A DNA stretch of 64,000 nt from an uncultured Candidatus Berkelbacteria bacterium (GTDB taxonomy: Bacteria > Patescibacteriota > UBA1384 > UBA12157), in contig CAIRFN010000005.1 of the NCBI GenBank assembly GCA_903877885.1, forward strand, positions 17,956 to 81,955, given 5' to 3'. Shown here piece after piece: positions 11,345-61,877 of the stretch. Numbering within the stretch: position 1 is the stretch's first letter; every line of letters starts with the position of its first letter. A program made the position numbers and the translations under genes. Below the pieces are notes generated by a model. That model saw nothing but the letters and a program-made list of their open reading frames with translations, had not been told where the DNA came from and made no database searches.

Positions 11345-11372
11345 AAAATAGTATCTGGTGTACAGAGTAACA

Positions 11373-11408
11373 AAGGACAGTCCTTAAACGCGTAAAAGGA
11401 CTGTCCTT
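11373..11408. repeat. REP-like palindromic element (aaggacagtcctt arms), copy 1
   Basis: aaggacagtcctt-aaacgcgtaa-aaggactgtcctt followed by tttt. Located between the convergent genes lepB and 11469..12995. Confidence 0.8.
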
Positions 11409-11468
11409 TTAAATTATAGATCGCCACGGTCTGCTGACCTCGCGATGACAATTTTTTTAGATCTATCT

Positions 11469-13145: not shown

Positions 13146-14177
13146 TTAACTCGCTAATTTAAGAACTAATAAGTCGAGGGCCACTTTTGGCTCAACCTGA
13201 CCGGTTTTCATCGCCAAATCGTTTTCCATTAATTCATGGTAGATTTTTTTCAGTTCTATCATATTGTAATTCTTAATTAAATTTAGGCTTTTACCGGCCA
13301 CAAACGGATGCAATCCAGCCCGTTTCGACAGCTCCCACTGCGAATTTACTCCGCGCTCGGCAAAATCCATCGTAATTAACAGGTTCCGATATTGATAAAC
13401 AATCATCGACAAAATATAGAGTTCATTTTCGCCATTATCTAAAAGTCGGTGTAATTCGTATAATGATTTTTTGACGTTTCGACTAGCGACCGCGTCAACC
13501 AGAGCAAAAATATCGCTGGAAGTTTGCGGTTTAACCAAGAGTTCGATATTTTGAACTGTAATAATATTGTCATCCTCGAGCCGGTGTGAGTCTTTATCGA
13601 ACACCGACATCGGGGATCCAGATCCCGGATCCTGAAGCCTTCCGGTCCGGGATGACAGACCTTTAAAAGTTGCAAGTTTGGCAATTTCATTTCCTAACCG
13701 CCACAAATCGGCGCCAACATATTCAAATAATTTTTGAACACCATCAGATGTAATCGTACCATTTAATTTAGCAACTTCTTCGCGAATCCAGGTTTTTGCA
13801 CCTTGTTCATCAAGCGGTTTAAATTCTTGGGTTTTTTGTTTAGCTAATTTTTTGTAAAGCGATGTCCGTTTATCTGGCACGCCTGCTTCAGCAAAAACCA
13901 AAACGGTTGTTTCCGGGACTTTCGGCAAAAATTCGCCGATTTTTTCTTGTTCATCCTTTTTTCCTTCTAACAACAAATTTTCAATAATCACCAGCCGACT
14001 TTTGGCTAAAAATGGATAGGCCAAAATCTGCCGAATCATAAAATCGGCTTTAGTCGTCTTGCCGTCAATCACCGCTAAATTTGTGTCCCCTAAAGACGCG
14101 GAAATATACTTTTCCTTCATCTCTTTAATTTTTTGTTTTAGTCTGTAAGTATCCTCGCCAAAAAGAAATAATATCAT
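13146..14177 (-). CDS. holA: DNA polymerase III delta subunit-like (HolA)
   Basis: 343 aa. N-terminus MILFLFGEDTYRLKQKIKEMKEKY and overall delta-subunit layout. It carries an in-frame family-A element at 13568-13657. Confidence 0.65.
   Translation of the reverse strand: MILFLFGEDTYRLKQKIKEMKEKYISASLGDTNLAVIDGKTTKADFMIRQILAYPFLAKSRLVIIENLLLEGKKDEQEKIGEFLPKVPETTVLVFAEAGVPDKRTSLYKKLAKQKTQEFKPLDEQGAKTWIREEVAKLNGTITSDGVQKLFEYVGADLWRLGNEIAKLATFKGLSSRTGRLQDPGSGSPMSVFDKDSHRLEDDNIITVQNIELLVKPQTSSDIFALVDAVASRNVKKSLYELHRLLDNGENELYILSMIVYQYRNLLITMDFAERGVNSQWELSKRAGLHPFVAGKSLNLIKNYNMIELKKIYHELMENDLAMKTGQVEPKVALDLLVLKLAS
13568..13657. repeat. Family-A MITE-like palindromic element (tgtcatcctcgag...gggatgaca) inserted in frame in holA
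   Basis: Termini tgtcatcctcgagccgg.. and ..ccggtccgggatgaca. Translated through as ..RLQDPGSGSPMSVFDKDSHRLEDDN.. Confidence 0.8.
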
Positions 14178-15691: not shown

Positions 15692-15727
15692 AAGGACAGT
15701 CCTTCAGCGCGTTAAAGGACTGTCCTT
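15692..15727. repeat. REP-like palindromic element, copy 2
   Basis: aaggacagtcctt-cagcgcgtta-aaggactgtcctt followed by ttt. Located just after the fabH-like gene. Confidence 0.8.
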
Positions 15728-15735
15728 TTATTCTT

Positions 15736-15826
15736 TGTCATCCTCGAGCCGGAGGGTACTCCGACATCAAGGATCCAGAAAATTCCTGGATCCCAGATCC
15801 TGAAGCCTTCCAATCTGGGATGACAT
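15736..15826. repeat. Family-A MITE-like element, intergenic copy
   Basis: tgtcatcctcgagccggagggtactccgacatcaaggatccag + aaaattc + ctggatcccagatcctgaagccttccaatctgggatgaca. Confidence 0.8.
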
Positions 15827-20246: not shown

Positions 20247-21482
20247 ATGATGAAAGAAAAAATGAAAATATTAGCCATTGAATCAAGTTGTGACGAAACC
20301 GCGGCCGCCGTTATTGAAAATAATAACGGTGAGATTAAGATACATTCAAACATAATTTCTAGTCAAATTGATATTCACAAACAATTTGGTGGCGTTTTTC
20401 CCGAAATTGCTTCGCGTGCTCATGCCGAAAATATTATTCCGGTGATTAAAGAATCTTTAATTAATAGTATTGATGATGTCGATCTAATCGCTGTCACTGA
20501 CGGACCAGGTTTAATCGGTTCGCTTTTGGTTGGCGTCAATGTAGCCAAAACCTTGAGTTTCGCAAATAATATTCCGATCTTACCAATCAACCACTGGCTT
20601 GGTCATATCTATTCCTGTTTTACCGATGATAAAAATTTACCTCGATTCCCTCTTCTCGCCCTTATTGTTTCCGGTGGTCATACTGGTTTGGTGTTGATGA
20701 AAAGTCATACCGAGTACATTCAAATCGGCGCTACACTTGATGACGCCGCTGGCGAAGCTTTTGATAAAGTAGCAAAACTCTTAGAATTAGGTTATCCTGG
20801 CGGACCGGCGATTTCAGCTGCGGCTGAAGAATATAAAAAAGAATGTCATTCCGGTCCAGATGGTAATACTGGAACCGGAATCCAGGCCTGGATTCCCGAT
20901 GTCGAGTTGCCACTCGGCTCGAGAATGACAATTTCCTTTCCGAGAGCCATGCTTAATTCTAAAGATTATAATTTAATGTCAATTAAATTTCCGCGGGCCA
21001 TGATGCAATCAGGGAACTATAATTTCTCATTTTCAGGGTTAAAAACTTCTGTACTAAACAAAGTTCGAACTTTAACTGAAAATTGGAAATTGAGAACTGA
21101 AAATTTTGCCCCCGTAGTTGCCTATGAATTTCAACAATGCGTCATTGATATTTTAATTGGTAAAACTTTGAAAGCGGCTGAAGAATTTAAGCCAAAATCA
21201 ATTCTTCTTTGCGGCGGCGTTTCAGCAAATAAGGAATTAAGAGAACAAATGAAAAAAGCTATTTTGTCATTCCGGACCCCTCCTGTCATTCCGGACCGGT
21301 TGGCAACAGGATCCGGAATCCAGGAAAAAACGAATGACAAGATTAATTTTTTCTGTCCGCCCATCGAATTAACCGGCGATAACGCGGCCATGATCGGTAT
21401 TGCCGCAGCCTATCAAATCAACGCTGGCGTTAAACCAACTACATATAATAATGTAAATGCGAACTCAAATTTGAAATTGTAA
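20247..21482 (+). CDS. tsaD: tRNA N6-adenosine threonylcarbamoyltransferase TsaD (Kae1/Gcp family)
   Basis: (M)KILAIESSCDETAAAVIEN.. N-terminus with the His metal site. At 411 aa it is longer than typical, because of two in-frame element insertions plus a 17-codon tandem duplication. An alternative start exists at the ATG at 20262. Confidence 0.9.
   Translation: MMKEKMKILAIESSCDETAAAVIENNNGEIKIHSNIISSQIDIHKQFGGVFPEIASRAHAENIIPVIKESLINSIDDVDLIAVTDGPGLIGSLLVGVNVAKTLSFANNIPILPINHWLGHIYSCFTDDKNLPRFPLLALIVSGGHTGLVLMKSHTEYIQIGATLDDAAGEAFDKVAKLLELGYPGGPAISAAAEEYKKECHSGPDGNTGTGIQAWIPDVELPLGSRMTISFPRAMLNSKDYNLMSIKFPRAMMQSGNYNFSFSGLKTSVLNKVRTLTENWKLRTENFAPVVAYEFQQCVIDILIGKTLKAAEEFKPKSILLCGGVSANKELREQMKKAILSFRTPPVIPDRLATGSGIQEKTNDKINFFCPPIELTGDNAAMIGIAAAYQINAGVKPTTYNNVNANSNLKL
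20844..20930. repeat. Family-A MITE-like element in frame in tsaD (copy 1)
   Basis: tgtcattccggtccagatggtaatactggaaccggaatccag gc ctggattcccgatgtcgagttgccactcggctcgagaatgaca. Translated as ..CHSGPDGNTGTGIQAWIPDVELPLGSRMT.. Confidence 0.8.
21263..21340. repeat. Family-A MITE-like element in frame in tsaD (copy 2, with a duplicated left terminus)
   Basis: ttgtcattccggacccctcc tgtcattccggaccggttggcaacaggatccggaatccag gaaaaaacgaatgacaa. Translated as ..ILSFRTPPVIPDRLATGSGIQEKTNDK.. Confidence 0.75.
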
Positions 21483-21489
21483 CCTTAAT

Positions 21490-21880
21490 GTACACCCTGG
21501 AAGTGTACATTGGTTTGAACTAATATAAAGAGAACGCCCCTGGCAAGCCAGGGGCGGTAGGAAAGATGGATAGGGATTGGGAAAGAAAAGAATGAAAAGT
21601 AGGCGTTGCGATGCCTCGAGTGATGAAGAGATGTGCTAGACTTAGAACGAGTGGACAGATGCGGTCTGAACGAAGCCTTCTTGCGAAGGACAAGTGAACG
21701 TAGAGCCCTAAGGCTCGGACAGTGATGGTCTAGGCGGCAGCCCGAAATGCTGGCGAGTCGCAACCGAGAACACCAAAGAGGTGTCGAACATGACAAAGCA
21801 ACGCCTTATAAATATCGTAGTTCTCACTAAAACCTTTGTCAAGACCTTAAAAATCTGATAAGATAAAATAAATTAATGAG
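21490..21880. ncRNA. Candidate structured non-coding RNA in a GC-rich block with many tetraloop hairpins, between tsaD and valS
   Basis: No plausible ORF on either strand; the only long frame is S/R/L-rich junk. Hairpins at tgtacaccctggaagtgtaca, cccctggcaagccagggg, gccttcttgcgaaggc and gagccctaaggctc. GC is clearly elevated against the flanks. Identity unknown. Confidence 0.3.
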
Positions 21881-21888
21881 AAAATATT

Positions 21889-24039
21889 ATGCAAGAATTA
21901 CCATCAAATTACAATTATAAAGAAACTGAAGACAAAATTTATGCGCTGTGGGAAGAAGCCGGCGCGTTTAAACCAGTTATTGATCCTAATCAAAAACCAT
22001 ATACGATTGTGATTCCGCCACCAAATGTGACTGGTTCTCTTCATATGGGTCATGCTTTAAATAACACAATTCAAGATATTTTAATTCGTCGCTCTCGGAT
22101 GCGTGGCGTGCCAACTCTATGGATTCCCGGAACTGATCATGCCGGTATTGCTACTCAAAATGTGGTGGAAAAAAAGTTGGCTAAAGAAGGCAAAACTCGT
22201 CAAGAACTTGGGCGCGAAGAGTTCACCAAAGAAGTTTGGGATTGGGTTGATCAATATGGCAACACTATTATTGGACAGCTCAAGAAAATGGGTTGTTCTT
22301 GCGATTGGTCCAGACAGCGTTTTACCATGGATGAAGGCTATTCAGAAGCGGTTAAAGTCGCGTTCAAAAATTACTATGATAAGGGTTATATTTATCAAGG
22401 TGAACGAGTGATCAACTGGTGTACCCGTTGTCAAACTGCCTTATCTGATATCGAAGTCGAACATATTGATCAAAACGCTAAACTATATTTTTTTAAATAT
22501 GATAAAAATTTTCCGATCACCATTGCCACTACGCGACCAGAGACAAAGCTTGGCGATACAGGTGTAGCGGTCAATCCGAAAGACAAAAGATATCAGGATT
22601 ACATTGGTAAAACTTTCAAGGTTAATTTTTGCGGTGTCGACCGCGAGATTCGGGTTTTTGCTGACATTAGTATTGATATAACCTTTGGCACTGGCGCCGT
22701 CGGAGTCACTCCAGCGCATTCTTTGGTTGACTATGAAATGGCCGAAAAAAATGGCTTGGATATTATTAAAGTGATTGATCAATATGGGAAAATGACCAAA
22801 GAAGCGGGAACAGAATTTGAAGGTTTGAAAGCAACTGAAGCGCAAGCCAAAGTCATCGAAATGTTGGAAAAAGCTGGGCTGATGGAAAAAGTGGAAGAAA
22901 TCCAAAACGCGATCAGTGTGTGTTATCGCTGTAATCGACCGATTGAGCCTCAACCGTCAAAACAATGGTTTTTAAAGATGTCGGAATTAGCAAAACCAGC
23001 GATTGAAGCGGTTAAATCTGGTCAAATTAAATTCACACCAGACCGTTGGACCAAAGTTTATTTAGACTGGATGGAAAATTTGCGCGACTGGTGCATTTCT
23101 CGCCAAATCTGGTGGGGGCACACCATTCCAATTGAAGGCGAAACTGATGTTTTGGACACTTGGTTTTCGTCAGCCTTGTGGCCGTTTGCCACACTTGGTT
23201 GGCCCAATAAAACTGAAGACCTAAAATATTTTTATCCGACCACCACACTTTCCACTGCCCGCGATATTATTTATCTGTGGGTGGCACGAATGATTTTTTC
23301 AGGGCTTGAATTTACCAACGAAATTCCATTTTCACAGGTTTATATTCATCCAACGGTTTTCAATAAAGAAGGTAAACGCATGTCCAAATCTTTGGGCACC
23401 GGCGTCGATCCTTTGGAACTGATCGAGAAATACGGTGCCGATGCCACGCGATTTGGTCTTACCTATATTAATACCGGGATTCAAGATTTGAAATTTGACG
23501 AAGAAGCTATTGGTGCTGGCAAAAAATTTGCCAATAAGTTGTGGAATATCACCAGATTCATGTTGATGAGCATTTGTCATTCCGGTCCGGATGGCTCCGG
23601 AACCGGAATCCAGGAAAATGATAATCTGGATTCCAGATCAGGTTGCCAACCAGTCTGGAATGACAAGATGGAACCAAGAACTGAAGCCGATAAAATCATT
23701 CTTGAAAAACTTAATGCCGTTATTAAATCAACTGACAAAAATCTTGATGAATTTAAATTTGGCCAAGCGGCGCATGATTTGTATGATTTCGTCTGGCACG
23801 ATTTGGCCGACGTATATATAGAAGAAAGCAAAGTGACCGCGAACGGTCATCCCGAGCCGAAGTCCGGCGAGGGAACCCCTGATTTTTCAGTATTACTTTA
23901 TGTAATAGTAACTTCGATTAAACTTTTGCACCCGATTATGCCGTTTGTAACAGAAGAAATCTGGCAAAAACTCTACGAAGATAAATTAGTTGATGAAAGA
24001 ATGCTGATTACGGCAAAATGGCCAAAAGCACAAGAATAG
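21889..24039 (+). CDS. valS: Valyl-tRNA synthetase (compact form)
   Basis: PPPNVTGSLHMGHAL HIGH region, KMSKS (GKRMSKSLG) and anticodon-binding region. Carries an in-frame family-A element at 23575-23665. Confidence 0.9.
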   Translation: MQELPSNYNYKETEDKIYALWEEAGAFKPVIDPNQKPYTIVIPPPNVTGSLHMGHALNNTIQDILIRRSRMRGVPTLWIPGTDHAGIATQNVVEKKLAKEGKTRQELGREEFTKEVWDWVDQYGNTIIGQLKKMGCSCDWSRQRFTMDEGYSEAVKVAFKNYYDKGYIYQGERVINWCTRCQTALSDIEVEHIDQNAKLYFFKYDKNFPITIATTRPETKLGDTGVAVNPKDKRYQDYIGKTFKVNFCGVDREIRVFADISIDITFGTGAVGVTPAHSLVDYEMAEKNGLDIIKVIDQYGKMTKEAGTEFEGLKATEAQAKVIEMLEKAGLMEKVEEIQNAISVCYRCNRPIEPQPSKQWFLKMSELAKPAIEAVKSGQIKFTPDRWTKVYLDWMENLRDWCISRQIWWGHTIPIEGETDVLDTWFSSALWPFATLGWPNKTEDLKYFYPTTTLSTARDIIYLWVARMIFSGLEFTNEIPFSQVYIHPTVFNKEGKRMSKSLGTGVDPLELIEKYGADATRFGLTYINTGIQDLKFDEEAIGAGKKFANKLWNITRFMLMSICHSGPDGSGTGIQENDNLDSRSGCQPVWNDKMEPRTEADKIILEKLNAVIKSTDKNLDEFKFGQAAHDLYDFVWHDLADVYIEESKVTANGHPEPKSGEGTPDFSVLLYVIVTSIKLLHPIMPFVTEEIWQKLYEDKLVDERMLITAKWPKAQE
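23575..23665. repeat. Family-A MITE-like element in frame in valS
   Basis: tgtcattccggtccggatggctccggaaccggaatccag...ctggattccagatcaggttgccaaccagtctggaatgaca. Translated as ..CHSGPDGSGTGIQENDNLDSRSGCQPVWNDK.. Confidence 0.8.
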
Positions 24040-24049
24040 ATAAATTTTG

Positions 24050-24068
24050 AAATTCGAATTTTGAATTT
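24050..24068. repeat. Outer 19-bp inverted repeat, left arm (aaattcgaattttgaattt)
   Basis: Its reverse complement is identical to 24481-24499. Lies within gaaattc-type short tandem repeats. Confidence 0.75.
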
Positions 24069-24074
24069 TTTCTT

Positions 24075-24451
24075 TGTCATTCCAGACCGGCCGGAGGCAG
24101 GATCTGGAATCCAGAATAAAATGAATAATTATTATGTGTATATTTTGACTAGCAGAAGAAACGGCACTTTATATATTGGCGTAACTAATGATCTGATTAA
24201 AAGAATATGGGAACATAAAAACCATAGTAAAAAAGGATTTACAGAAAAATATAACATTTGCCAATTGATATACTTTGAGCAAACTAATAATATAAACTCC
24301 GCTATTAATAGAGAAAAACAATTAAAATCATGGAATAGAAAATGGAAACTTGACTTAATTGAGAAAGTCAATCCTGATTGGAAAGATTTATATCAAGAAT
24401 TGTTGTAACTGGATTCCCGATGTCGGATGCCATCCGACTCGAGAATGACAA
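24075..24451 (+). mobile_element. Full-length family-A element carrying a GIY-YIG nuclease ORF between its two terminal modules
   Basis: Left module tgtcattccagaccggccggaggcaggatctggaatccag (24075-24114). ORF 24121-24408. Right module ctggattcccgatgtcggatgccatccgactcgagaatgaca (24410-24451). The short MITE copies (e.g. 38811-38904) are these two modules joined directly. Confidence 0.75.
24121..24408 (+). CDS. GIY-YIG nuclease family protein (UPF0213/YhbQ-like, about 95 aa)
   Basis: ..YYVYILTSRRNGTLYIGVTNDLIKRIWEHKN.. with the GIY...YIG motifs. The start is trimmed to the ATG at 24121. The track frame is open from 24061 through the left terminal module. Confidence 0.85.
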   Translation: MNNYYVYILTSRRNGTLYIGVTNDLIKRIWEHKNHSKKGFTEKYNICQLIYFEQTNNINSAINREKQLKSWNRKWKLDLIEKVNPDWKDLYQELL

Positions 24452-24480
24452 TTGGATAATTAAAAATTGATTCGAAATTC

Positions 24481-24499
24481 GAAATTCAAAATTCGAATT
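24481..24499. repeat. Outer 19-bp inverted repeat, right arm (aaattcaaaattcgaattt)
   Basis: Exact reverse complement of 24050-24068. Confidence 0.75.
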
Positions 24500-24514
24500 T
24501 AATTGAAAGTTACT

Positions 24515-32296: not shown

Positions 32297-32311
32297 AAAT
32301 ACTTAAAAATA

Positions 32312-32348
32312 GATTCCGGATCCTGTCGCCAACCGGTCCGGAATGACA
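32312..32348. repeat. Family-A solo half-module
   Basis: gattccggatcctgtcgccaaccggtccggaatgaca. Confidence 0.65.
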
Positions 32349-37741: not shown

Positions 37742-37752
37742 ATACAGACCAA

Positions 37753-37788
37753 AAGGACAGTCCTTCAGCGCGTTAAAGGACTGTCCTT
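37753..37788. repeat. REP-like palindromic element, copy 3
   Basis: aaggacagtcctt-cagcgcgtta-aaggactgtcctt tt. It is followed by a ttgataccagatacc motif. Confidence 0.8.
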
Positions 37789-37839
37789 TTGGATAATCTG
37801 ACACTTGATACCAGATACCAAATGCTATATACTTGACCC

Positions 37840-38810: not shown

Positions 38811-38904
38811 TGTCATTCCAGACCGGACGGCGTCAGGATCTGGAATCTAGGATAATTGTTTCTGGATTCCCGATGTCGGATTGCCATCCGACTCGGGAAT
38901 GACA
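38811..38904. repeat. Family-A MITE-like element, intergenic reference copy
   Basis: tgtcattccagaccggacggcgtcaggatctggaatctag gataattgttt ctggattcccgatgtcggattgccatccgactcgggaatgaca. The whole element is a long imperfect palindrome. Confidence 0.85.
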
Positions 38905-38921
38905 AAGAAAAATATAACAAA

Positions 38922-40070
38922 TTATTTATTAACTTCTTTCTTCAGTTCTTCCACTTTATCCGTTCTCTCCCAAGGTAAATCTAATTCTGGTCTACCGAAA
39001 TGGCCATAGGCGGCAATTTTTTGGTAGATTGGTTTTCGAAGATCTAAGGCTTGGATAATCATCCCTGGTCGTAAATCAAAAACTTTACTCACCGCTTGAG
39101 CGATTTTATCGTCTTCAATGGTGCCAGTACCAAACGTATCAATTCGCACCGACATTGGTTCAGCTCGACCGATGGCATAAGCAATCTGCACTTCACAGCG
39201 TTCGGCTAATTTTGCGGCAACGATATTCTTGGCCACCCATCTGGCCGCATAGCTACCCGACCGATCAACTTTACTCGGATCTTTTCCAGAGAAACAACCG
39301 CCACCGTGACGCGCATAGCCACCATAAGTATCAACAATAATTTTGCGGCCGGTCAGTCCAGTATCACCTTGCGGCCCACCAATCACAAACCGACCGGTGG
39401 TGTTGACATAGTAGTTTGTATTTTGAAGCAAGGATTTAGGGATAACTTTTTCAATTACTTTCTCGATAATTTCTTTTTTTAAGATCGATGTTTTAATATT
39501 TTCATCATGTTGTGCCGCAATTAAAACCGATTCGATGCGGACTGGTTTGTCGCCATCATATTCAACTGTAACCTGGCTTTTGCCGTCTGGTCGCAAGCCT
39601 TTGACAATCCCCTTTTTTCGAACTTCAGCCAAGCGTTGGCAAAGTTTGTGAGCCAAAACAATTGGCAAAGGCATTAATTCTTTGGTTTCGCGACAAGCAT
39701 AACCAAACATCAAACCTTGATCACCGGCGCCTAGATTTTCCAAGTCTTCGACCAAAGGACAGTCCTTTTGTTCCTTTAAGGACTGTCCTTTACTAAACGC
39801 ATCAACACCCTGTGCAATATCGGCTGATTGTTCCTTAACCGCCACCATTACACCGGAAGTTTCCCAGTGAAAACCATATTCGGCATTTGTATAGCCAATT
39901 TGTTTAATGACGTTGCGAGCGATTTTCGGAATATCGACATATGTTTTAGTGGTAATTTCTCCAGCGATAATACAAACGCCGTTGGTCAGCAATGTTTCGC
40001 AAGCGACTCGTCCTTGCGGATCGTCAGTTAAAATTGCATCGAGTACCGCATCACTAATCTGATCAGCCAT
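38922..40070 (-). CDS. metK: S-adenosylmethionine synthetase
   Basis: [35 protein letters not shown] and the rest of the canonical MetK sequence. Carries an in-frame REP-like insertion at 39765-39800 (..[17 protein letters not shown]..). Confidence 0.95.
39765..39800. repeat. REP-like palindromic element inserted in frame inside metK
   Basis: aaggacagtcctt-ttgttccttt-aaggactgtcctt. It adds about 12-16 residues relative to the conserved MetK loop before GAGDQG. Confidence 0.8.
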
Positions 40071-40183
40071 TTTGTCAAGGATGCCCTTCAGTAACAGATT
40101 CTGATGTAAAGAATTTATTCATAGGACTATCTCCTTTCTAGAGCATAAAGCTTCCTCATATTTTTTATATTTATCTAATTTTT

Positions 40184-40277
40184 TGTCATTCCAGACCGGA
40201 TGGCATCAGGATCTGGAATCCAGAGTTAATTATTTCTGGATTCTTGATGTCGGAGTACCCTCCGGCTCGAGAATGAC
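40184..40277. repeat. Family-A MITE-like element in the metK 5' leader, between the riboswitch terminator and the start codon
   Basis: tgtcattccagaccggatggcatcaggatctggaatccag...ctggattcttgatgtcggagtaccctccggctcgagaatgaca. Confidence 0.8.
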
Positions 40278-40292
40278 ATAAAAAAACAAAAA

Positions 40293-40412
40293 TCACCGCA
40301 AGCGGTGAAATATATAAAAACATCTTTCCCGCAAGGGGTCGGAGGTAGCACCTAAATTAATGGGTTGCTGGTGGATCATCGGGCCGAATCCCTCACCACA
40401 CTCTTGATATTA
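40293..40412 (-). ncRNA. SAM-I (S-box) riboswitch with an intrinsic terminator, upstream of metK
   Basis: Minus-strand read: AUCAAGAGUGUGGUGAGGGAUUCGGCCCGAUGAUCCACCAGCAACC...GGUGCUACCUCCGAC. This matches the conserved SAM-I core AGAGnGGnGGAGGGAnnGGCCCGAUGAnnCCnnGCAACC...GGUGCUA. It is followed by a terminator tcaccgcttgcggtga plus a T-run at 40280-40308. Confidence 0.8.
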
Positions 40413-40528
40413 AAATTAATTTTTAACTAAATTTATCATATTATAACCATCTAACTTTTGTCAAACTCTTGCCTGGAAACAATTTTTGCTTTAAGATGTA
40501 AATATTAAATTTATATTTTAGGAGCAAA

Positions 40529-45136: not shown

Positions 45137-45527
45137 TGTCATCCTCGAGCCGGTTTGAGCTTTGTCGAAAACCGACATCAAGGATCCATCAAAATAAAAA
45201 GCTATTTCGTTTACATTTTAGCCAGTCAGAAAAACGGAACATTATATATCGGTGTTACAAATGATATTATAAGAAGGATTTGGGAGCACAAAAATAAAGC
45301 TATTCAAGGTTTTACAGATAAATATAGAATTGATAAATTAGTTTATTTCGAAGAAACACCAGATATTAATTCAGCTATTAAGAGAGAAAAACAATTAAAA
45401 TTATGGAGCCGTTCCTGGAAAATAGATTTGATAGAAAAGAATAATCCTGATTGGAAAGATTTATATCAAGATTTGTTATAATGGATCCTTGATGTTGGAG
45501 CGCTTCGCTTCCAACTCGAGGATGACA
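45137..45527 (+). mobile_element. Second full-length family-A element carrying a GIY-YIG ORF between its terminal modules, inserted between atpA and atpG
   Basis: Left module tgtcatcctcgagccggtttgagctttgtcgaaaaccgacatcaaggatcca. ORF to 45481. Right module tggatccttgatgttggagcgcttcgcttccaactcgaggatgaca. Confidence 0.75.
45155..45481 (+). CDS. GIY-YIG nuclease family protein (second copy)
   Basis: ..YFVYILASQKNGTLYIGVTNDIIRRIWEHKN..REKQLKLWSRSWK.. The frame is open from a TTG inside the left terminal module. There is no ATG near the conserved N-terminus, so the start is uncertain. Confidence 0.75.
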   Translation: MSFVENRHQGSIKIKSYFVYILASQKNGTLYIGVTNDIIRRIWEHKNKAIQGFTDKYRIDKLVYFEETPDINSAIKREKQLKLWSRSWKIDLIEKNNPDWKDLYQDLL

Positions 45528-45548: not shown

Positions 45549-45611
45549 ATGTCATTCTCGAGCCGAATGGTAATTCGACCTGCCTGACGGCAGGCAGGCA
45601 TCAAGAATCCA
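45549..45611. repeat. Family-A solo module with an embedded 20-nt palindrome (cctgcctgacggcaggcagg)
   Basis: tgtcattctcgagccgaatggtaattcgacctgcctgacggcaggcaggcatcaagaatccaa. Confidence 0.7.
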
Positions 45612-45617
45612 ACTGTA

Positions 45618-45659
45618 TGTCATTCTCGAGTCGGATGGGATCCGACATCAAGAATCCAG
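45618..45659. repeat. Family-A solo module, tandem direct copy
   Basis: tgtcattctcgagtcggatgggatccgacatcaagaatccag. Confidence 0.7.
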
Positions 45660-46025: not shown

Positions 46026-47066
46026 ATGCCAAGTACACAAGAATTTCGTAGAAGAATTAAATCGGTCAGTTCGACCAAACAGATTACCAAAGCAATGGAA
46101 ATGATTGCTTCTATTAAGATGCAAAAATCTGTCAAAACTATTGCCCAGGCTCGAGCCTATATCCAAAACGCATGGAATATTTTACATTTACTGTCTGAAA
46201 AAATATTAAGCGACGATCACGCGCTGATTAATCCTAAAGATCATGCCAAAAAAACAGCCGTGATTTTAATTACTTCTGACCGCGGTTTATGCGGTTCATA
46301 TAATTCAGAAGTGATCAAGAAGCTAACATCATTCAAAAATGTCATCCTCGAGACGGAGGGTACTCCGACATCAAGGATCCAGGACCTGGATTCCAGATCT
46401 GGTTCCCAACCAGTCTGGAATGACAATACGATTGATATCATTGCCATCGGTAAAGTCGGCGCCGCGTTTGTTAACAGATATAAAATCGGCAAACTGATCG
46501 CTGAATTTAAAGGTTTTGAAAATAATATTTCCGTTGAAGATGTCATTCCGATTTCCAAACTGACGAATGGTGAATATATGGCTGGAAATTATGACAAAGT
46601 GGTAGTGATTTATTCTCATTTCATTTCTTCGCTTAAACAAGTCCCGGTCGTCAAACAAATTTTGCCAATTGTCGAAGATCATATCGATCATCCGGAATTA
46701 TGGGAAGGAAATAATGTCATCCTCGAGCCGGAGGGTACTCCGACATCAAGGATCCAGGACCTGGATTCCCGATCCGGAGGCCATCCGGTCGAGAATGACA
46801 AAAACAATACTGAATACAAATTTGAACCCAATCCTGATGAAGTTTTTGATGGCGTCTTGCGACAAATTTTACGCACCCAAATTTTCGGTGCCATTTTAGA
46901 AGCCAACGCTTCTGAACATTCGGCCCGTATGGTGGCCATGAAAAATGCCACCGACAATGCCACCGATTTAGTTGATGAATTAAAATTAGTATATAACAGC
47001 ATCCGCCAAGGAAACATCACTTCGGAAATCGCCGAAATTAGTGGTGCCGCCGAGGCGATGAAATAA
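46026..47066 (+). CDS. atpG: F0F1 ATP synthase subunit gamma (lengthened by two in-frame MITE insertions)
   Basis: Conserved N-terminus (..RRRIKSVSSTKQITKAMEMIASIKMQK..) and C-terminus (..NSIRQGNITSEIAEISGAAEAM). At 346 aa it is longer than typical. Confidence 0.9.
   Translation: MPSTQEFRRRIKSVSSTKQITKAMEMIASIKMQKSVKTIAQARAYIQNAWNILHLLSEKILSDDHALINPKDHAKKTAVILITSDRGLCGSYNSEVIKKLTSFKNVILETEGTPTSRIQDLDSRSGSQPVWNDNTIDIIAIGKVGAAFVNRYKIGKLIAEFKGFENNISVEDVIPISKLTNGEYMAGNYDKVVVIYSHFISSLKQVPVVKQILPIVEDHIDHPELWEGNNVILEPEGTPTSRIQDLDSRSGGHPVENDKNNTEYKFEPNPDEVFDGVLRQILRTQIFGAILEANASEHSARMVAMKNATDNATDLVDELKLVYNSIRQGNITSEIAEISGAAEAMK
46340..46425. repeat. Family-A MITE-like element in frame in atpG (copy 1)
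   Basis: tgtcatcctcgagacggagggtactccgacatcaaggatccag gac ctggattccagatctggttcccaaccagtctggaatgaca. Translated as ..VILETEGTPTSRIQDLDSRSGSQPVWND.. Confidence 0.8.
46715..46800. repeat. Family-A MITE-like element in frame in atpG (copy 2)
   Basis: tgtcatcctcgagccggagggtactccgacatcaaggatccag gac ctggattcccgatccggaggccatccggtcgagaatgaca. Translated as ..VILEPEGTPTSRIQDLDSRSGGHPVEND.. Confidence 0.8.
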
Positions 47067-61437: not shown

Positions 61438-61460
61438 AAAGTAGACGGTATCCGACAATA

Positions 61461-61495
61461 AAGGACTGTCCTTCAACGCGCTAAAGGACAGTCCT
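61461..61495. repeat. REP-like palindromic element, copy 5
   Basis: aaggactgtcctt-caacgcgcta-aaggacagtcctt tttt. Followed by atacttgatactaaatcctaaatactagatac. Confidence 0.8.
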
Positions 61496-61540
61496 TTTTA
61501 AATACTTGATACTAAATCCTAAATACTAGATACTAATTTT

Positions 61541-61813: not shown

Positions 61814-61823
61814 CTTTACCTAA

Positions 61824-61859
61824 AAGGACAGTCCTTCAGCGCGTTAAAGGACTGTCCTT
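61824..61859. repeat. REP-like palindromic element, copy 6
   Basis: aaggacagtcctt-cagcgcgtta-aaggactgtcctt t. Located between convergent genes. Confidence 0.8.
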
Positions 61860-61877
61860 TATTGTTTGTGATTTTTC

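Follow-up and report, generated by a model that had tools for sequence, protein, structure and literature searches.

What kind of DNA is the palindromic segment that lies in frame within the gene for valyl-tRNA synthetase (ValRS) of an uncultured Candidatus Berkelbacteria bacterium, and how can an essential protein carry it? We addressed this question in a 64-kb stretch (64,000 nucleotides) of contig CAIRFN010000005.1, assembly GCA_903877885.1, hereafter called the window, in which the segment occupies positions 23575-23665, inside valS. Our analysis indicates that it is very probably a non-autonomous hairpin-repeat dimer, without a gene of its own, of the CGTC/TGTC-tagged repetitive extragenic palindrome (REP) type, equivalent to the Ssn-related motif (SRM), which survives in a permissive loop of the enzyme.

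A hairpin-repeat dimer in frame inside valS

The gene and the parts of the element are as follows.

21889..24039, plus strand: valS, valyl-tRNA synthetase, host of the element; an intact, uninterrupted open reading frame (ORF) of 716 amino acids
23575..23665, plus strand: gene-less two-module hairpin-repeat dimer in valS; 91 nt, in frame, covering codons 563-592 and the first base of codon 593
23575..23613, plus strand: left module (head TGTCAT, bulged hairpin of 14 bp, tail GGAATCCAG); identified by nhmmer (E = 4.5e-9), alignments and covariation
23614..23625, plus strand: spacer of 12 nt, GAAAATGATAAT, with no stop codon in the valS frame
23626..23665, minus strand: right module, an inverted copy of the same module type (nhmmer E = 1.5e-10)

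The identity of the host gene is clear. Its product matches the Pfam families tRNA-synt_1 and Anticodon_1, aligns with Thermus thermophilus ValRS (structure 1GAX) at E = 6.8e-186, and keeps the motifs HMGH (residues 52-55) and RMSKS (497-501). Its ValRS homologues number in the thousands, with the best matches annotated as Patescibacteria. The alignment with 1GAX stops near residue 695 of 862, and the 716-residue protein appears, from its sequence, to end without the coiled-coil domain found at the C-terminus of T. thermophilus ValRS.

An earlier note on this DNA, made from its letters, had described a complete two-module palindrome at this site, and the sequence, the fold and the module profile all agree with that description. 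The window letters match the sequence quoted at that time, TGTCATTCCGGTCCGG...CTGGAATGACA; the palindrome runs TGTCATTCC...GGAATGACA, and the full segment reads TGTCATTCCGGTCCGGATGGCTCCGGAACCGGAATCCAG-GAAAATGATAAT-CTGGATTCCAGATCAGGTTGCCAACCAGTCTGGAATGACA. It folds as one long hairpin of -48.2 kcal/mol, compared with -30.3 +/- 3.5 kcal/mol in dinucleotide shuffles (z = -5.1; 0 of 200 shuffles equally stable), and its arms were recovered as inverted repeat I13. The end motifs of the element occur 5 to 14 times as often in the window as expected: GTCATTCCGG, allowing up to one mismatch, occurs 16 times against 3.0 expected and CCGGAATCCAG 11 times against 0.8 expected, counts that no shuffle reached.

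The in-frame read-through that the note also claimed is borne out by the single uninterrupted ORF. Its translation contains ..MSICHSGPDGSGTGIQENDNLDSRSGCQPVWNDKMEPRT.., in which the element encodes CHSGPDGSGTGIQENDNLDSRSGCQPVWND(K), approximately 30 residues. The filled protein has the predicted junction peptides ..FMLMSICHSGPDG.. and ..VWNDKMEPR.., and further peptides expected from its translation are FMLMSICHSGPDGSGTGIQ and SGCQPVWNDKMEPR.

The Logan assembly ERR4193247 and the ENA assembly ERZ27313102, both from other samples, are 100% identical to the window over valS and the element. Because these two independent assemblies agree, an assembly artefact is unlikely, and the element is confirmed as real. 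The same data bear on the suggestion that the segment is a ValRS loop native to this lineage, its likeness to the repeat being coincidental, or else a chimera created during assembly. The hypervariable length of this loop among Patescibacteria ValRS would fit a native origin; however, when scored with a profile made from the remaining copies, both modules reach E values of about 1e-9 to 1e-10, and the fold z-score and the motif counts given above also speak against it. We give this explanation next to no credence, since the module profile scores and the independent assemblies effectively refute it.

A family of constrained hairpin modules

The assignment of the valS segment to a repeat family, already made in the earlier note, was borne out when a profile built from the modules was searched over the 64-kb window and found 27 significant modules. 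These are arranged as 10 gene-less dimers or partial dimers, 3 solo modules and 2 dimers that each enclose a gene. The 40-nt module consists of a TGTCAT head, a hairpin with a 14-bp stem carrying one bulge and a loop of 3-6 nt, and a GGAATCCAG tail; in a dimer, two such modules are inverted with their heads outward, separated by the 12-nt spacer in the valS copy. TGTCAT, the A-T/T-A base of the stem (pairs A5-T38 and T6-A37) and the ATC core of the tail are invariant in all 22 aligned modules, and the remainder of the CCAG tail hardly varies. Most gene-less dimers join a CCrGACyGG-type module to a CTCGAGyCGG-type module, and the modules have a G+C content of 51-59%, compared with about 40% for the genome.

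The hairpin itself is under constraint. Among 16 modules of one subtype it is 92% paired, with 7 of the 14 pairs changed on both sides, a pattern matched by 0 of 500 shuffles, and sliding the partner columns by one position makes the pairing collapse.

Apart from the valS element and the modules around the genes described below, the profile located the following copies.

13568..13657, minus strand: in-frame dimer in holA (DNA polymerase III delta); the holA hidden Markov model (HMM) match breaks at residue 183/184
20844..20930, plus strand: in-frame dimer in tsaD, CHSGPDGNTGTGIQAWIPDVELPLGSRMT; absent from three orthologues
21265..21339, plus strand: in-frame partial dimer in tsaD, LSFRTPPVIPDRLATGSGIQEKTNDK; the related locus L083 carries a module here too
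46340..46425, plus strand: in-frame dimer in atpG (ATP synthase gamma); profile match
46715..46800, plus strand: second in-frame dimer in atpG; profile match
15736..15825, no strand assigned: intergenic dimer; profile match
38811..38904, no strand assigned: intergenic dimer with stop codons in all six frames
40184..40278, no strand assigned: dimer in the metK leader, between an S-adenosylmethionine (SAM) riboswitch with its terminator and the start codon
49559..49649, no strand assigned: intergenic dimer; profile match
32310..32348, minus strand: solo module; profile match

Six of the 10 gene-less copies thus lie in frame in essential genes (one in valS, two in tsaD, one in holA and two in atpG), and the atpG family HMM match, like that of holA, breaks at the elements. 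Each genic copy has three stop-free frames, compared with none to two in the intergenic copies, where the stops fall mostly in A/T-rich spacers. This contrast is the signature of a selection filter acting on translated copies.

The same contrast bears on the idea that the mature product lacks the insert, which would have been removed from the RNA or, in some members of the population, from the DNA, leaving a short-loop ValRS to do the work. Hairpins are prone to deletion, that of the valS element is very stable (-48 kcal/mol), and Ssn-type nucleases, which are discussed below, cut beside such hairpins in single-stranded DNA. Nevertheless, the identical filled allele occurs in three independent assemblies, no RNA-level excision system is known for such elements, and the nuclease SsnA does not act on RNA (PMC11893778). 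Moreover, 6 of 6 genic copies, but not the intergenic ones, keep the frame and stay free of stops, a preservation that makes sense only if the genic copies are translated. We therefore judge removal of the insert to be highly unlikely.

GIY-YIG genes nested between the same modules

The two dimers that enclose a gene, and the modules next to one of them, are as follows.

24075..24450, plus strand: putative autonomous unit 1; L module 24075-24114, Ssn-like GIY-YIG gene 24121-24408 (95 aa), R module 24409-24450
45137..45527, plus strand: putative autonomous unit 2; L module 45137-45188, GIY-YIG gene approximately 45191-45481, R module 45482-45527
45550-45611 and 45618-45659, plus strand: two solo L-type modules 3' of unit 2; profile match

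Both GIY-YIG genes of the window (2 of 2) are nested exactly between inverted L and R modules. Unit 1 lies in the spacer between valS and a tetratricopeptide repeat (TPR) gene, just past the valS stop codon and about 400 bases downstream of the valS element, and it is absent from the syntenic valS-TPR spacer of the related loci L083 and L084. The protein of unit 2 is 71% identical to that of unit 1. Both proteins (95 and 96 aa) match PF01541, which covers residues 3-77 of the 95-residue protein, and by inspection Tyr7, Tyr18 and Glu65 of the window protein have the spacing of the catalytic residues Y6, Y17 and E64 of Neisseria meningitidis SsnA.

Homologues sharing 53-72% identity with these proteins are spread over a great many phyla. 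GTCAT upstream together with ATGAC downstream was found at 62 of the 78 homologue loci with enough flanking sequence, and most of the 78 have strong inverted repeats like TGTCATTCCCGCGAAAGCGGGAATCCAG ... CTGGATTCCCGC..GCGGGAATGACA. One homologue, L007 (65% identical), is flanked by the exact consensus of the NTS, the repeat recognised by SsnA, which provides an indirect link to the Ssn family cd10448. Because the same modules flank both nuclease genes, the valS copy stands to the GIY-YIG units as a MITE (a miniature transposable element with inverted repeats) stands to its insertion sequence (IS), or a REPIN to its RAYT; the gene-less dimers would be non-autonomous derivatives that spread with the help of the nuclease.

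The surroundings of these units show further features. An A/T-rich inverted repeat, 24043-24068 / 24475-24501 (AAATTCGAATTTTGAATTT / AAATTCAAAATTCGAATTT), brackets unit 1, as though a terminator-like hairpin downstream of valS had taken up the unit at its apex. In L083 and in a third related locus, L085, long uninterrupted A/T-rich palindromes are found where this flanking repeat sits. We also considered AAATTCGAAATTC, beside unit 1, as a dispersed family and rejected it, with 14 matches in the window against 10 expected. Near unit 2, the solo module at 45550-45611 has a 20-nt perfect palindrome, CCTGCCTGACGGCAGGCAGG, nested in its hairpin.

Insertion into a variable loop of ValRS

Aligned with HMMER, the window protein and 1GAX split exactly at the element: residues 416-561 correspond to 1GAX 447-592 and residues 593-696 to 1GAX 599-695. 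The 31 residues encoded by the element remain unaligned, at a place where T. thermophilus has a loop of 6 residues, and the closest orthologues (P0002-P0005, 74-78% identity) do not have the CHSGPDG...VWNDK peptide. This comparison with ValRS orthologues, proposed in the earlier note as a check, points to an insertion. In an alignment of 120 orthologues the loop is hypervariable, ranging from about 6 to 50 residues among Patescibacteria ValRS. The earlier placement of the element just after the junction between the KMSKS motif and the anticodon domain was approximately right; we refine it to 62 residues past RMSKS, at the N-terminal edge of Pfam Anticodon_1 (601-713).

An AlphaFold2 (AF2) model of ValRS, built with 77 sequences, has a mean predicted local distance difference test score (pLDDT) of 88.9 and a predicted template modelling score (pTM) of 0.85. 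In this model the insert is coil (residues 565-598), with pLDDT below 50 at 567-586, and lies between the confident helices 538-564 and 599-620. Its Gly-, Ser-, Pro- and Asp-rich residues are probably disordered. In protein databases, a 42-aa query containing the element peptide shared words with no candidate, and an exhaustive search of 1.84 billion representatives returned one irrelevant tandem-repeat ORF (P0121).

A second low-confidence loop of the AF2 model, residues 655-660, coincides with a further feature of valS.

23846..23878, plus strand: candidate decayed solo module inside valS, tentative; GGTCATCCCGAGCCGAAGTCCGGCGAGGGAACC = GHPEPKSGEGT

The profile search of the window with the modules did not detect this candidate. 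The orthologue P0004 carries GSGHPEPQSGEGSPEE at the same site.

Recurrent occupation of the loop

Repeat dimers also occupy this loop in relatives. At L083 (P0006, 71% identity), a dimer lies in the same ValRS loop, 11 residues further in, and consists of one long module and one short canonical SRM (..NHSGPDGNTGSGILEKTRSRNKFGMT..), a heterodimer type that is also present as an intergenic copy on the same contig. Similarly, the loop of L084 (P0033) contains a dimer of short GTCATCCTGA..GGATCTC modules (..SHPEQSEGS...EILRSAQNDK..); that of L085 (P0005) has no dimer. Approximately 12 of the 120 ValRS orthologues have head-and-tail repeat peptides in the loop, a count made by eye from the alignment and the sequences. 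Other insertion hot spots of ValRS lie near residues 415, 440 and 650. The ValRS-loop inserts are independent, lineage-specific insertions into permissive loops.

Alternatively, the insertion could have been exapted, with the hairpins in essential genes kept as Ssn sites that limit recombination or transformation across those genes, a role proposed for the NTS in Neisseria, as mRNA structures that pace translation, or for the sake of a useful ValRS peptide. Genic modules are as well preserved as intergenic ones (31-41 versus 33-43 bits), compensatory changes maintain the pairing of the hairpin, the NTS/Ssn system modulates transformation in N. meningitidis, and repeat-derived peptides occupy the same ValRS loop in about 10% of the 120 orthologues. 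However, the peptide is not conserved between lineages, in which families, frames and positions differ, and the AF2 model gives it no structure. The occurrence of the element in four unrelated proteins as well as in spacers is the pattern of a passenger, and good preservation can simply mean recent insertion. We consider exaptation improbable and retain the reading of the valS segment as a non-autonomous dimer that survives in a permissive loop.

Inserts of another kind were seen in the same proteins. The ValRS orthologues P0007, P0015, P0020, P0032, P0094 and P0110, among others, have long low-complexity inserts near the position of window residue 415, and the tsaD genes of L083, L084 and L085 also contain long low-complexity inserts. 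Examples are ..SKFKIQN.., ..LEIRNSDLEIYVG.. and ..KSQILNPKQILNNKSQKF.., and these inserts resemble the translation products of A/T-rich palindromic repeats belonging to other families.

Relation to known repeats and nucleases

CGTC-tagged REPs, whose tag is often TGTC, were described by Di Nocera et al. (2013; PMC3733652) as having 8-9-bp stems that open with A/T pairs and a CCA tail. They correspond to Neisseria dRS3 and to Rickettsia RPE-4 and RPE-6, and they have intragenic copies, some of them in proteobacterial tRNA synthetase genes; a dedicated transposase was not found (PMC3733652). The window modules share with them the terminal (C/T)GTC tag, the A-T/T-A start of the stem, the CCA tail, the inverted and often heterodimeric arrangement, and the intragenic copies. 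They differ in their 14-bp bulged stem and 3-6-nt loop, compared with 8-9-bp stems and 4-5-nt loops, and in their host, which belongs to Patescibacteria, whereas the published set covers five phyla without Patescibacteria (PMC3733652).

Chenal et al. (2025; PMC11893778) identified the extended dRS3 as the NTS (CGTCATTCCCGCGMAVGCGGGAATCYRG), which is recognised as single-stranded DNA by SsnA. This GIY-YIG nuclease, with 94 aa and a single domain, cuts upstream of the NTS at a distance of a few bases. The ssnA gene typically lies between inverted NTS/SRM copies, in an IS-like architecture that is widespread across phyla; the NTS/Ssn system modulates transformation of N. meningitidis, and a role in limiting transformation has been proposed (PMC11893778). 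Binding and nicking have been shown for Neisseria and Wolbachia Ssn homologues. The window has in common with this system a single-domain GIY-YIG gene of about 95 aa, inverted hairpin flanks, and the NTS head and tail (CGTCATTCC...GGAATCCAG), and hundreds of gene-less copies are likewise to be expected per genome. Chenal et al. mention neither Patescibacteria nor intragenic or in-frame copies.

The best analogy for how the window system might work is provided by REPINs and RAYTs (Bertels and Rainey 2011; PMC3116915), in which tagged hairpins replicate as inverted doublets and also flank the single-copy gene for the enzyme. REPINs carry a GTAG tag, depend on a Y1 HUH transposase and are almost always extragenic, in contrast to the TGTC tag and GIY-YIG gene seen here. 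As for a RAYT or IS transposase partner, the genes flanked by modules are GIY-YIG genes, and no search of the window for RAYT was made. Bacterial MITEs, such as the Coxiella QMITEs (PMC5896051; reviewed in PMC10969869), are also small, non-autonomous inverted-repeat elements that can be read in coding regions. Classical MITEs, however, have IS-derived terminal inverted repeats and target-site duplications, whereas the window elements have no such duplication and their partner gene is not a transposase. Single-strand elements of the IS200/IS605 type share the absence of target-site duplications with the window modules, as an analogy only. Our literature search found no description of such in-frame elements in Patescibacteria.

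A further parallel concerns the Rickettsia palindromic elements (RPEs), which Ogata et al. reportedly described in 2000 and 2002 as lying in frame in many genes, and for which reverse transcription PCR (RT-PCR) and protein evidence is said to exist. Like the window family, RPEs are palindromic repeats in frame in unrelated, presumably functional genes of a small-genome bacterium, with both genic and spacer copies and 20-50 residues added at tolerated sites. Their host belongs to Alphaproteobacteria rather than Patescibacteria, the window module has a 14-bp bulged stem, and the two groups are linked only through the published equation of RPE-4 and RPE-6 with CGTC REPs.

Proposed mechanism and points against it

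By extension from its homologues, we infer that an Ssn nuclease would bind the module hairpin in single-stranded DNA and nick a few bases 5' of the tag. Dimers might then be copied or moved through a single-strand intermediate, a hypothetical step. Insertions into genes would survive only in a permissive surface loop, in frame and free of stops, and it is this selection filter that the genic copies of the window support. In valS, the element would be transcribed and translated as a flexible loop of about 30 residues connecting the first two long helices where the chain enters the anticodon domain, and ValRS would stay active.

Several observations weigh against this interpretation. The nearest ValRS is 78% identical, and an empty site in a close relative, and hence the insertion event, was not observed. 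Translation of the valS insert is deduced from the intact ORF only. With the chosen boundaries the element measures 91 nt, which is not a multiple of three, and its ends are for this reason uncertain by 1-2 nt. No target-site duplication or target motif was found; the best direct repeats are 0-3 nt long, in A/T-rich flanks. The SRM pattern HGTCWYN(0-2)YYVSBRHN(0-5)WNVSBRGN(0-2)RNCYNB has 0 matches in the window, and the modules fit it only when its centre is widened to 15-45 nt, because their hairpin is about 12 nt longer. The GIY-YIG gene of unit 2 lacks an ATG start; translation may begin at a TTG inside the L module or at a non-canonical codon, or the gene may be a pseudogene. Finally, Chenal et al. 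(PMC11893778) only note the IS-like architecture, and mobilisation of the repeats by Ssn is not known from any study.

Other observations in the window and in metagenomes

The dimer in the metK leader adjoins a regulatory region. The gene metK occupies 38925-40118 (minus strand), with a SAM riboswitch at 40317-40413 (minus strand) and a terminator-like hairpin at approximately 40305-40280, and the repeat dimer precedes the ribosome-binding site; it could affect riboswitch-controlled expression. This unrelated SAM riboswitch was the only Rfam match at gathering thresholds, and the valS element gave sub-threshold matches resembling miRNA precursors, as expected of any long hairpin.

A second, unrelated palindromic family, AAAGGACAGTCCTTCAGCG|CGTTAAAGGACTGTCCTTT, has at least 5 copies in the window (11372-11409, 15692-15727, 37749-37792, 61460-61497 and 61823-61860), the copy at 15692-15727 being immediately upstream of the dimer at 15736. 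In a metagenome scan with TGTCATTCCRGWCCRGNNGG, 80 loci were kept, mostly chance matches in unrelated GC-rich DNA; approximately 7 of the 80 are true modules, from the window genome itself and from relatives in sample Ga0172379.

Significance

What is new here is the Patescibacteria host, the extended stem that escapes the SRM motif, and the recurrent, independent colonisation of one ValRS loop in related lineages. Within 64 kb of this minimal-sized genome, at least 4 essential proteins carry selfish hairpin DNA, and the insert sites map, in nature, the loops that can accommodate 30 additional residues.

There are also practical consequences for annotation and assembly. The inserts split HMM matches (valS, holA and atpG) and inflate protein lengths. 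The Logan contig L081 spans 20889-24452: its first base comes right after the 2-nt spacer (20886-20888) of the tsaD dimer, and its last lies two bases beyond the R module of unit 1 (24450); these ends at repeats indicate that the repeats fragment short-read assemblies and add to the fragmentation of Patescibacteria metagenome-assembled genomes.

The findings extend the 2025 discovery of the Ssn/NTS system to Patescibacteria and tie it to the 25-year-old puzzle of in-frame palindromic elements of the Rickettsia type, for whose spread they offer a candidate enzyme. In addition, the extension of the hairpins to 14 bp implies that site-specific single-stranded DNA nucleases can have new recognition specificities. 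Somewhat short of an even chance, in our estimation, is the broader proposition that Ssn-associated dimers are a major undescribed source of lineage-specific inserts in essential proteins across Patescibacteria, with the same few loops (ValRS, tsaD) recolonised by different families, that the extended-stem modules form a new Ssn/hairpin specificity class beyond the reach of the SRM motif, and that the gene-containing unit is truly mobile. If the unit does move, its absence from syntenic relatives would be the first comparative evidence for NTS-ssn-NTS transposition, and the weight of the finding would grow if the pattern proved general in Patescibacteria or if ssn units were shown to move.

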